A stretch of 64,000 nt of DNA from an uncultured Gammaproteobacteria bacterium (GTDB lineage Bacteria > Patescibacteriota > Microgenomatia > UBA1406 > HO2-37-13b), in the NCBI GenBank assembly GCA_964413645.1, contig CAYPSA010000001.1, positions 72,389-136,388 of the forward strand, written 5' to 3'. Below are positions 21,944-24,796 of this stretch, piece after piece. The translations under genes and the position numbers were made by a program. Numbering within the stretch: position 1 is the stretch's first letter; each line of letters begins with the position of its first letter. The notes below the pieces were generated by a model. The model was not told the DNA's origin and did no database searches. It was given only the letters and a program-made list of their open reading frames with translations.

Positions 21944-24796
21944 ATGTTTAATCCATTCAAATCATTTTTCGACTTTAACAAAAAAGAAATTGATCGACTT
22001 GCAAAGCGAGTCGACGAGATTAATAAACTCGAAGATTCAGTGCGATCTTTAAAAGACGCTGATTTTGCAAAGGAAACAGTAAGGCTTCAAGAACAAATCA
22101 AATCAGGAACATCACTTGATGAGATTTTGCCATACTCTTTTGCACTCGTTCGCGAAGCCGCCAGAAGAGTGCTGGGAACACGCCACTATGATGTGCAACT
22201 TATGGCTGGAATTGCTCTTCATGAAGGTACCGTTGCCGAGCAAAAAACAGGAGAGGGAAAAACGTTATCTGCTACTTCGCCGCTCTATTTAAATGCTTTA
22301 ACTGGAAAAGGAGTTCATTTGGTTACTGTAAACGATTATTTGGCACGGCGTGATGCCGGATGGATGGGGCAGTTGTTTAGTTTCTTAGGTCTTTCTGTTT
22401 CTGCAATTATTTCTGAGCAGTCATTTTTATATGATTCTTCTTTTATCGATTCCCAAGCAACCGATCATCGACTAATTCATTTGCGACCCGTTTCGCGAAA
22501 AGAAGCATATGATGCTGACATAACCTACGGTATTAATTCAGAATTTGGATTCGACTATTTGCGCGACAACATGGCAAACGAAATGACAGGATTGGTACAA
22601 CGAGGATTTCATTACGCAATTATCGACGAGGTTGATTCTGTTTTAATTGACGAAGCTCGAACACCGCATATTATTTCCGCAGCGTATGATAAAGATGTTT
22701 CAAAGTATTATGATTACGCAACCATTGTTTCCAAATTAAAACCGAGCGATTTTACCATCGATGAAAAACAGCGAACCGCTCATTTAACAGAAGCAGGAAT
22801 TGCGACCATCGAAGGAATTTTGAAAGTCGAAAATGTGTACGAGAAAGATTTTGACACAGTATTTCATGTAGAAGCAGCACTTAAAGCCCGAACACTATTT
22901 ACGAAAGATAAAGATTACATCGTAAAAGATGGCGAAGTTATTATAGTCGATGAATTTACTGGTCGACTTTTGTATGGTCGCCGATTTTCTGAAGGATTAC
23001 ATCAGGCAATTGAAGCAAAGGAGCGGGTAGATATTAAACAAGAATCTCGAACGCTTGCCACCGTTTCATTACAAAACTATTTTAGAATGTATGAAAAACT
23101 CGGGGGCATGACTGGAACTGCAGCAACAGAAGCAGAAGAATTTTCAAAGATTTATAAACTTAATGTTATTATTTTCCCAACACATAATAAGGCGCAAAGA
23201 ATAGATCATGCAGATTTGATTTATAAAACCGAACTTGGAAAATTTAACGCAGTTGTTGCGGATGTTGCCGCGCAACACAAAACAGGTCGCCCAGTTTTAA
23301 TTGGAACCACTTCAATCCAAAAGAATGAGCTACTTTCTCAATTACTTAAAAAGAATGGTGTTCCACATACTCTATTGAATGCTAAAAACCATTTAAAAGA
23401 AGCGCAAATTATCTCATCCGCAGGTGAGCGAGGAGCAGTAACTGTTGCAACCAACATGGCTGGTCGAGGAGTCGATATTGTTCTGGGTGGAGAAGCTCCG
23501 AATAAGTATGAACGTCCAGTTGATAACGACGGTGTCATCCTGAGCTCCGCCGCGGGCGGAAGTGAGGGATCCTCGTCATCAAAAAAACAAGTTAAAGAAT
23601 CCGAAAAATACGAAAAGAAGATGAATGAATGGAGAAAGAAACATGATGAAGTTCTTGCACTTGGAGGTTTGTATGTTATCGGAACCGAACGACACGAATC
23701 TCGACGTATCGATAACCAGCTCCGAGGACGATCAGGTCGACAAGGTGACGCCGGAGAAACGCGTTTCTTTGTTTCACTCGAAGACGATTTGATGAGAATA
23801 TTTGGTGGTGAGCAAGTTGCAAAACTCATGAACTTTTTCAATATTCCTGAAGATCAACCATTAGAACATAAAATGGTATCACGAGCGCTCGAACAATCGC
23901 AGGTAAAAGTAGAAGGATTTAACTTTGACATGCGAAAACACTTGGTTGAATACGATGATGTCCTGAATAAACAACGAGAAGTTATTTATAGACTCCGTAA
24001 TCAAATCTTACGATCTGAAAATAAAGAAATTGACAATATCGCGACAAGTCTCTTTGAAGAAGAGATTCAAACGCTGACTAATATGTATGTCTTCCTCGAG
24101 GAAGATGTGATTGAATTTGAAAAACTAGCGCTTGAATTTTCACAAATAATTGGTGGCGATCCAAAGAAATTACAGAGCGAACTTGAGAAATTAGATAAAC
24201 CAGAAATTGCGCAGTTGCTTTCCAAGAAATTGCAAACAAGTTATAAAAAAAAGGAAAAAGACTTGGGAACCGACGTATGGAAGCAGGCAGTTCAAATTGT
24301 GTACCTGTCAACTATTGATAAATATTGGACTGAACATCTAACAGCAATCGACGACTTGCGCGATGGTATTCGTTTCCGCGGATACGCGCAACTTGATCCG
24401 TTAGTAGAGTATAAGAATGAAGCGTACACCATGTTTGAAAAATTACTTTCTGATATTAATTACGATGTATCTCGTCGATTACTTCATATTGAAGTAACGC
24501 AAAATATTCCACAGGTCCAAACACTTGATGAAAGCAAAATAAAATTGTCATCGGCTTCAGCAATCGATCCATTCGCAGCTCAAACCGATCCTCATGCCGG
24601 ACATAATCATGACGATCATGATCATGTCCACGATCATTCAGGTCATGATCATAGCCATGCAGGTCATACCCATACACATACCGTGAGTGCTTCTGCGCAA
24701 TCTACCAAAATCGGTCGTAATGATCCTTGCCCATGTGGAAGTGGATTGAAATACAAGAAGTGCGGCCTCATTAATGCTCCAGAACACAAGAACTAA
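21944..24796 (+). CDS. secA: Preprotein translocase ATPase SecA
   Basis: [56 protein letters not shown], C-terminal [12 protein letters not shown] zinc motif; ATG 21944 (MFNPFKSF) preferred to ORF-track 21890, which overlaps serS. Confidence 0.95.
   Translation: [950 protein letters not shown]
23534..23572 (+). repeat. Family A unit with inner CCGCC/GGCGG hairpin, in frame inside secA
   Basis: gtcATCCTGAgcTCCGCCgcgGGCGGAagtGAGGGATcc; translated [13 protein letters not shown]. Confidence 0.85.

Follow-up and report, generated by a model that had tools for sequence, protein, structure and literature searches.

In a 64,000-nt stretch of contig CAYPSA010000001.1 from an uncultured bacterium of the Patescibacteriota (hereafter the window), the secA gene carries in frame a 39-nt segment, window 23534-23572 on the plus strand (GTCATCCTGAGCTCCGCCGCGGGCGGAAGTGAGGGATCC), that is a true member of a dispersed family of hairpin repeats. 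We consider it probable (about 0.8) that this segment is a passenger of repeat origin which a surface loop of the SecA protein tolerates, and that it has no sequence-specific role there. What appears decisive for its identity as a repeat unit in secA is the occurrence of a canonical unit at the orthologous site of a 93%-identical SecA from a related genome (L004), and not the length of the protein segment in which the unit lies.

The open reading frame (ORF) that holds the segment (21890..24796, frame 1, 968 codons) encodes SecA, as judged from phmmer searches against solved structures (E = 1e-236 for Thermotoga SecA and 1e-211 for E. coli SecA), and the closest database relatives of the protein are SecA proteins of Candidatus Roizmanbacteria / Microgenomates (Patescibacteria). 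The segment is a long form of the repeat unit, that is, a GC-rich hairpin standing in the loop of an outer hairpin (Table 1). Its 5′ arm matches GTCATYCTGAG at 11 of 11 positions (23534-23544), and the stem part of this arm, ATCCT, has its partner in GGGAT at 23565-23569, one of the pairs being a G.U/mismatch. The 3′ arm likewise follows the family order of G-purine, complement of the 5-nt stem (here with one stem mismatch) and C. The predicted fold (-19.1 kcal/mol, z = -2.8) is two-tiered as in other long forms, and its minimum free energy structure is the same as that of the units at 50334 and 33792 and of the unit in the relative L208.

Units of the family conform to the consensus GTCATYCTGAGCG-N-AGCGAAGRATCT, often with AGGTGT after it, and begin with GTCA… and end with …ATCT in all copies. 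In the folded state an outer stem of 5 bp is followed by a 2x2 G/A internal loop, beyond which lies an inner stem. When the window was scanned with a structural pattern (GTC, a 5-nt stem and GA, then G-purine, the complementary 5-mer and C), 21 matches were obtained, the secA unit among them, against a mean of 0.055 in 200 Markov-1 randomisations. Compensatory variants of the stem occur (ATTCT/AGAAT, ATCCT/AGGAT, ATGCT/AGCAT, ACTCT/AGAGT and ATCTC/GAGAT), and in an alignment of 12 short units, which are 26-27 nt long, double-sided changes were seen in six of the seven pairs and 97.6% of the cells could pair, a level that none of 500 shuffles equalled. The inner module TCCGCC-N3/4-GG[C/T]GGA is found in secA and at 15963, 20137, 33810, 48232 and 50344, i.e. 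six times in the window, where 0.02 occurrences of the exact hairpin pattern are expected; GTCATCCTGAG also occurs six times. The same module lies within units of the relatives L001, L006, L207 and L208, and other copies have ATCCCGCAAAGYGGGAT or CCTGCCTGCCGGCAGGCAGG as alternative inner modules. An initial annotation of this DNA had quoted the 39-nt sequence as lying in frame in a SecA linker, had assigned it to a repeat family with a nested GC hairpin, and had likened that hairpin to those at 33792 and 50334. All of this is borne out by the window letters, the ORF and the family fold, the same module being found within the same outer arms at both of the other positions.

Most copies are intergenic or at gene ends. 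The units are imperfect palindromes of 20-40 nt located mostly downstream of ORFs, often as inverted pairs that form larger palindromes. Eighteen of the 21 are on the plus strand, including those in or flanked by minus-strand genes (28613, 40661 and 50334), which suggests a strand bias independent of the direction of transcription.

Within SecA, the unit is located in a linker of the second nucleotide-binding domain (NBD2), between the DIxLGG strand and a conserved NBD2 motif. Measured between GG and GGL, this linker is 57 aa in the window protein, or 59 aa if the GG is counted. In the alignment to E. coli SecA (2fsf), query residues 1-18 fall on residues 493-510 and query residues 54-100 on residues 523-569, which gives a linker of 34 aa, 23 shorter than in the window; the initial annotation had put the linker at 57 aa and the difference at roughly 20, and both figures hold. 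The repeat unit, within the N-terminal part of the linker, is unaligned to the E. coli protein. Thermotoga SecA could be aligned up to DIKLGP (542) and again from VAELGGL (544), leaving about 1 residue for the linker and query residues 517-569 unmatched. Across SecA homologues the length of the linker depends on the lineage and ranges from 7 to 71 aa. We take the linker to be the variable (VAR) subdomain of NBD2, which reportedly regulates ATPase activity and ADP release in E. coli; a VAR region is present in M. tuberculosis SecA and essentially absent in B. subtilis SecA. The literature treats VAR as a protein segment that varies between lineages, whereas here part of it is demonstrably repeat DNA. 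In an AlphaFold2 model of the window SecA, built on 76 homologues (mean predicted local distance difference test score, pLDDT, of 75.6), residues 530-542, nearly coinciding with the unit (531-543), have a pLDDT below 50 and are, besides five residues at 597-601, the sole low-confidence stretch of the motor domains. The chain is modelled as coil up to residue 543 and then as a confident helix (544-572). The unit is therefore predicted to be a disordered loop directly before the conserved C-terminal VAR helix, which it leaves untouched in the window SecA. The position on the NBD2 surface that had been expected initially is supported by this low-confidence coil and by the absence of the region in Thermotoga and its shortness in E. 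coli.

The length of the linker is a poorer guide. The initial argument from linker length is weak: the unit contributes only 13 of the 23 residues in excess of the E. coli linker, and unit-free sisters still have linkers of 53 aa, as compared to 55-71 aa in unit-bearing alleles. Close relatives having the same linker without the repeat had been named beforehand as evidence that would speak against the insertion of a repeat; their linkers are nearly the same in length (53 aa) and different in sequence. The unit thus looks more like the replacement of a stretch of similar length than like a net insertion.

A series of secA alleles, drawn from members of the 90%-identity cluster and from exact-protein look-ups, was then compared. 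Six related Roizmanbacteria genomes show five structures at the site: short, long, nested, two units in another frame, and none. In L004 (SecA 93% identical to that of the window) a canonical short unit, GTCATCCTGAGCGAGAGCGAAGGATCT, stands between GAC GGT and CAG… and is read as VILSESEGS. The window allele (WIN) has the same 5′ flank and arm as L004, with the 15-nt GC hairpin in place of the loop, and is 12 nt longer. In L001 (96% identical) the 5′ arm is degenerate and the old 3′ arm is still there, with a second, complete unit (GTCATCTCGAACGAAGTGAGAGATCT) nested inside. In L207 (93% identical) a canonical short unit, GTCATTCTGAGCATAGCGAAGAATCT, is separated by 10 nt from a long unit, GTCATCCTGAACTTTCCGCCCAAGGCGGATCAGGATCT; frame 2 is used for both, giving GHSEHSEESQSDRHPELSAQGGSGS. 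One DNA unit hence has two readings, VILS… in WIN and L004 and …HSE…/RHPE… in L207. L005 and L006 (92% and 91% identical, respectively) have no unit, and their Lys/Glu-rich linker of 53 aa has a different sequence. All differences in length between the secA alleles are multiples of 3. A neighbour-joining tree on 899 SecA codons, with the linker excluded, has the topology ((WIN,L001)100,(L004,L207)100)92.5, with L005 and L006 outside. This bootstrap-supported grouping of the unit-bearing genomes indicates that the site was colonised once, in the ancestor of the four, and was then remodelled independently in each lineage; L004 and L207, at 4% nucleotide divergence, have one unit versus two. No unit was found in the linkers of about 120 other Roizmanbacteria SecA proteins, nor in those of 80 more distant metagenome SecA loci. 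Population variants lacking the unit, a check for which had been advised in the initial annotation, did not turn up: a metagenome scan with SecA gave only relatives at 60% identity or less, none of them with a unit in the linker.

The linkers of other Roizmanbacteria SecA proteins (P0012, P0018, P0028, P0034, P0076 and others) contain recurrent peptides that are apparently repeat-derived, i.e. YQISNIKNQK, QKSKVKSQK, SFAKASEGK, SESEGR and SDPPASPDGSASGGR. The same loop of SecA may be used by other repeat families, as far as these sequences indicate.

The allele series bears on the possibility that the unit is kept for a function in secA, either as an RNA hairpin involved in ribosome pausing or mRNA processing, or through its peptide, which would modulate the VAR subdomain and so the ATPase that VAR regulates. 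Such a function would fit the stability of the hairpin (-19.1 kcal/mol), the persistence of the unit through about 17% nucleotide divergence and the role in ATPase activity and ADP release attributed to VAR in E. coli (Das et al. 2012, as cited in PMC13178939 and PMC6620043). However, orthologues read the unit in different frames, the number and form of the units differ between them, the nearest outgroups (the sister lineage) and all other homologues examined are without it, and the outer stem of the window copy is already in decay, since it contains a mismatch and its 3′ arm has changed at three positions. Because two frames are read, the form is variable, the sister lineage lacks the unit and the stem decays, we infer that the unit probably has no SecA-specific function, and we regard its retention for one as improbable.

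Under the passenger reading, a 26-27-nt unit would have entered the length-variable NBD2 linker once, before the members of a small clade diverged. Its survival there could be owed to a length that is a multiple of three, to being free of stop codons in four of the six reading frames, and to a loop that would tolerate nearly any sequence. It would then have been remodelled in the same way as the intergenic copies, that is, by exchange of the loop for a GC hairpin, by addition of units or half-units and by deletions between units, with only frame-preserving outcomes seen among the alleles. Transcribed and translated with secA, the unit would yield a Gly/Ser/Ala-rich disordered loop before the VAR helix.

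The secA copy is one of several lodged in coding sequence. Internal copies were found in three of the approximately 57 genes of the window (secA, sufS and a GT2 glycosyltransferase gene), and three more genes have repeat-encoded tails, namely those for SufD, an oxidoreductase subunit and SerRS, in which the unit supplies the last 9-14 codons and the stop. In SufS, the whole of which is covered by the Pfam domain Aminotran_5, the unit peptide stands where B. subtilis SufS has GTISLEDVRETVTS, and the window protein is 4 aa shorter at this point; the unit therefore replaces a native helix segment and adds no length. Relatives at 82-90% identity carry the unit, whereas those at 79% or less have ordinary sequence. 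Among the carriers, L208 has a long form (GTCATTCTGATCCGCCAGCTGGCGGAGAAGGATCT, read as VILIRQLAEKDL), which is the same short-to-long swap as in secA, and L209 combines a variant unit with two half-unit repeats of 21 nt. All sufS alleles share the 5′ junction and vary in the interior and the 3′ part; of the secA alleles, only WIN and L004 have this junction in common.

The GT2 gene (49716..50672, minus strand), in which the Pfam match is broken at the unit (50334), offers an empty site for comparison. Homologues at 77% identity or less read FLNSDT-EILDDAIS, those in L210 and L211 read EIL-RSAQNDGVD-SIS and are 7 aa longer, and the window protein reads EIL-GARAEIPLRQMADRNDKGIAETDGVD-SIS and is 24 aa longer. 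On the antisense strand the ancestral empty site is GC-GTCAT-CTAA-AATCTC and the filled site GTCAT-TCTGAGCGGAGCGAAG-AATCTC. That is, both unit termini were already present in conserved native GT2 codons, DD giving GTCATC and EIL giving …AATCTC in antisense. The 3′ end of serS is another variable site: L004 has nothing there, and five different fillings occur among the other close relatives (L001, L005, L006 and L207 differ). In lysS a GC hairpin adds 3 aa in WIN and L001, and is not present in L005, L006 and L207; this hairpin resembles an isolated copy of the inner module.

Table 1. Positions of the secA repeat unit, its parts and surroundings, and of further units of the family, in the window.
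Feature	Position	Strand	Description
secA	21944..24796	+	950 codons counted from MFNPF; the listed ORF begins at 21890, within the upstream repeat unit
Variable linker of NBD2	23492..23662	+	57 aa between DIVLGG and GGLYVIG
secA repeat unit, long form	23534..23572	+	39 nt, in frame; SecA residues 531-543 counted from MFNPF
5′ outer arm	23534..23545	+	GTCATCCTGAGC; exact 11-mer common to 5903, 7992, 15824, 32741(-) and 33792
Inner GC hairpin	23546..23560	+	TCCGCC-GCG-GGCGGA, in the loop of the outer hairpin
3′ outer arm	23561..23572	+	AGTGAGGGATCC; degenerate version of the family's AGCGAAGGATCT
Short unit, SufD C-terminal tail	7992..8023	+	…VILSVAKDLGVEN*
Short unit with AGGTGT tail in sufS	8461..8492	+	32 nt, internal, in frame, VILSVAKNLGV; sufS at 8020..9243
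Short unit, covarying stem ACTCT/AGAGT	11529..11560	+	C-terminal tail …VTLSRAKSLGVKP* of the 2-oxoacid:ferredoxin oxidoreductase alpha/gamma subunit
GC hairpin in lysS	20132..20155	+	CCGTCCGCCAGCGGGCGGATCGG; class-I lysS (PPSASGRIG)
Short unit at the end of serS	21908..21933	+	GTCATGCTGAGCGAAGCGAAGCATCT; last 9 codons and stop of serS (…HAERSEASQ*), just upstream of secA
Intergenic long-form unit	33792..33838	+	inner hairpin TCCGCCCGCTGGTGGA
21-nt 5′ half-unit and long-form unit in GT2	50313..50368	+	antisense, in frame inside the GT2 glycosyltransferase gene; …EIPLRQMADRNDKGIAETDG…

The alleles at the secA, sufS and GT2 sites preserve the frame in every case, and none contains a stop codon. 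This pattern bears on two further explanations. The unit might be excised from the RNA like an intervening sequence and be absent from the protein; structured intervening sequences are common in the rRNA genes of candidate-phyla bacteria. An excised element would, however, need neither an open frame nor freedom from stops, and no Rfam ribozyme or intron match was obtained, which makes this explanation highly improbable. Alternatively, the unit could reflect a chimeric join or mis-assembly, since metagenome assemblers can be misled by short dispersed repeats. Yet the identical SecA comes from two sources (NCBI and Logan) and stands on a 230-kb contig, related alleles at the same codon position come from independent projects (ENA, NCBI and Logan), and each allele is in frame with the flanking secA intact; an artefact is barely credible.

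Two groups of candidate structures were also set aside. A hammerhead, k-turn or other ribozyme, prompted by CUGA…GAA, lacks the core nucleotides on inspection, and Rfam was silent. A CRISPR array, an intein or a group II intron does not agree with the size of the unit, with its irregular spacing or with the missing splicing and nuclease domains.

The family is by no means confined to this genome. An exact-pattern scan with one genome per species gave at least 120 stretches (loci L007-L126), and among the matches listed the 26-nt unit is found in at least a dozen bacterial phyla, the taxa including Nitrospirota, Chloroflexota, Acidobacteriota, Bacteroidota, Gemmatimonadota, Planctomycetota, Verrucomicrobiota, Omnitrophota, Bacillota, Proteobacteria and Saccharibacteria. 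In these matches the units commonly form inverted pairs around a 10-60-nt spacer, and they often follow tandem 5′ half-units that recur about every 19-21 nt (e.g. in L044, L076, L085 and L092). The free Y/R positions covary across the phyla listed (C-G 79, T-A 62, other 6; Fisher p = 7e-34). Rfam at gathering score returned only tRNAs for the window and 15 loci from other phyla, and a permissive Rfam search (E <= 1) on a unit cluster gave no match. In the searched literature, the only matches to 13-24-mers of the unit were primers unrelated to it, and nothing relevant was found on in-frame palindromes in candidate-phyla bacteria.

As to how new copies and forms arise, we propose templated copying from other units, guided by short homology (gene conversion or template switching at hairpins), instead of cut-and-paste transposition. 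This is a tentative proposal, made because the empty GT2 site already holds both termini, 5′ junctions are shared while interiors vary, half-units stutter (with a 21-nt period that happens to preserve the frame) and no transposase was found among the genes of the window. The latter are housekeeping genes only (suf operon, glycolysis, aminoacyl-tRNA synthetases, mur/PBP cluster and glycosyltransferases). The serious rival is enzyme-driven transposition, in which the unit would be a conventional element of the MITE (miniature inverted-repeat transposable element) or REP (repetitive extragenic palindrome) kind, moved in trans by a transposase encoded elsewhere, e.g. one of the RAYT (REP-associated tyrosine transposase)/IS200 type acting on single-stranded hairpins. 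The dispersed, high-copy nature of the family would suit such an element, as would presence/absence differences between genomes that are 4-8% divergent and the frequent pairing of inverted units into larger palindromes, both in the window and in other phyla; moreover, REPs mobilised by RAYTs are known within genes (PMC3733652). Nevertheless, the units have no GTAG or CGTC end tag, and no target-site duplication could be detected between empty and filled sites of GT2 and of the serS 3′ end. When the ORFs lying no more than 150 nt from a unit were clustered, for 147 unit sites in the 120 loci listed from other phyla, no recurrent neighbour family emerged, with a GIY-YIG-like ORF in two loci only. 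Furthermore, no RAYT gene was found among the window genes (Pfam) or in syntenic loci, and plasmid records gave no BLAST match for the palindromic unit pair. On this evidence, transposition by an enzyme seems unlikely on the whole.

A bolder extension of templated copying would make the 26-nt hairpin an undescribed pan-bacterial element that propagates itself with no dedicated transposase, by template switching into arm-like sites, its own loops included. This is doubtful at present; if true, the element would, in the reduced genomes of candidate phyla, be an active and ongoing source of new loop sequence in essential proteins such as SecA, SufS, LysRS, SerRS and glycosyltransferases.

Several points weigh against the reading of the secA unit as a passenger spread by templated copying. 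Frame conservation is the single argument by which the unit may be held to be translated. The hairpin of -19 kcal/mol in an essential mRNA could have a regulatory effect. The SecA tree has a midpoint root, and the alleles agree about equally well with repeated gains of inner hairpins and with an ancestral two-unit array from which different parts were deleted in different lineages. The microhomology argument stands on one clean empty/filled pair (GT2): sufS relatives without the unit (L213 and L214) show no convincing arm-like proto-site, and the unit-free secA alleles give a weak hint of one. Finally, the search for a mobilising enzyme covered 64 kb of the genome.

The unit at the end of serS affects the annotation of secA itself. 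The TTG at 21890, which is the start of the longest secA ORF, falls in this serS-terminal unit, and the database protein P0242 (NCBI and Logan assembly), which is identical to the window SecA except for the first residue (TTG start codon), uses the extended start. MFNPF at 21944 is probably the true start, and the 18 codons of the listed ORF before it cross the repeat unit with which serS ends; the extended start of P0242 is an artefact of annotation, brought about by the unit having an open frame. Elsewhere in SecA, a long His/Asp-rich tract (residues ~853-922, window 24500-24720) separates the helical domains from the C-terminal zinc-binding motif, with a pLDDT around 30 in the model.

Other repeats and differences in gene content were observed in the same region. 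A perfect 22-nt palindrome, CCCTGCCTGCCGGCAGGCAGGT, occurs at 15990-16011 and 40674-40695, in both places as the inner module of a unit cluster, and a non-coding stretch of 270 nt (15806-16076) consists nearly entirely of nested units, with a predicted folding energy of -109 kcal/mol. A second family of hairpin repeats, CAACCTCTTAGGTTG(A/C)CA, is found at 2143-2204, 9215-9276, 43350-43411 and 48208-48238, usually as tandem pairs at gene ends; its copy at 9215-9245 provides the C-terminus and stop of SufS (…TNLLG*). L001 (4974-7057) and L207 (5029-7112) have two additional genes between greA and lysS, encoding a 354-aa protein of unknown family and a protein of the histone-deacetylase family, both absent from the window (~19030).

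Taken together, the findings indicate that repeat DNA lodged in proteins is not peculiar to Rickettsia, and its density is high in this bacterium of the candidate phyla radiation. The secA alleles amount to a natural time course (empty, short, long, nested, and frame-shifted but open) of an element's entry and reshaping under one constraint, an open frame. In practical terms, odd C-termini and 'insertions' in candidate-phyla proteins may be repeat units, start codons can be mis-called within units as for secA, and it is advisable to mask unit segments when proteins are aligned. The 26-nt core, present in many phyla, absent from Rfam and not found in the searched literature, merits a proper description; its cross-phylum distribution and apparent homology-guided spread are a side observation that may have the greater potential.

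Among known systems, MITEs (Correia, ERIC and BOX elements, for example) share with the present unit a small size, non-coding sequence, inverted symmetry and occasional in-frame fusion with host ORFs (PMC10969869). The unit is far smaller than typical MITEs, however, it lacks terminal inverted repeats derived from a parent insertion sequence, and no target-site duplication was seen. REPs are nearer in kind: they are tagged by GTAG or CGTC, and some are intragenic, single or grouped, adding tens of residues to proteins (Di Nocera et al. 2013, PMC3733652). Like REPs, the units are imperfect palindromes of 20-40 nt that lie mostly just downstream of ORFs, often in head-to-head pairs, and some are intragenic. 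Unlike REPs, they have no GTAG/CGTC tag (their ends being GTCA… and …ATCT) and no RAYT gene in the window, they have conserved tandem G.A positions in the internal loop, and their distribution crosses phyla, whereas REPs are specific to a species or genus. The Rickettsia palindromic elements (RPE), as summarised in PMC10969869 after Ogata et al. 2000, are about 100-150 bp long and are inserted in frame in housekeeping genes. As in that summary, a palindromic repeat is found here in frame in unrelated housekeeping genes (secA, sufS and GT2) of a small reduced genome, with copies both intergenic and intragenic and with the extra peptide, if translated as it seems to be, at positions compatible with the fold. 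By the same account RPEs belong to alphaproteobacteria, whereas the unit is 26-39 nt long and its host is a member of the Patescibacteria. The unit further differs from the RPEs described there in being modular, with hairpin-in-hairpin forms and 21-nt half-unit stutters, in having a 26-nt core that occurs in many phyla, and in encoding no conserved peptide, the frames differing between orthologues. The family is accordingly neither an RPE, by size and host, nor a REP, the tag being absent and no RAYT being found in the window, and no prior description of it was found for this phylum. Its behaviour nevertheless corresponds to that of the RPEs and of intragenic REPs, in that palindromic repeats have landed in frame in housekeeping genes.

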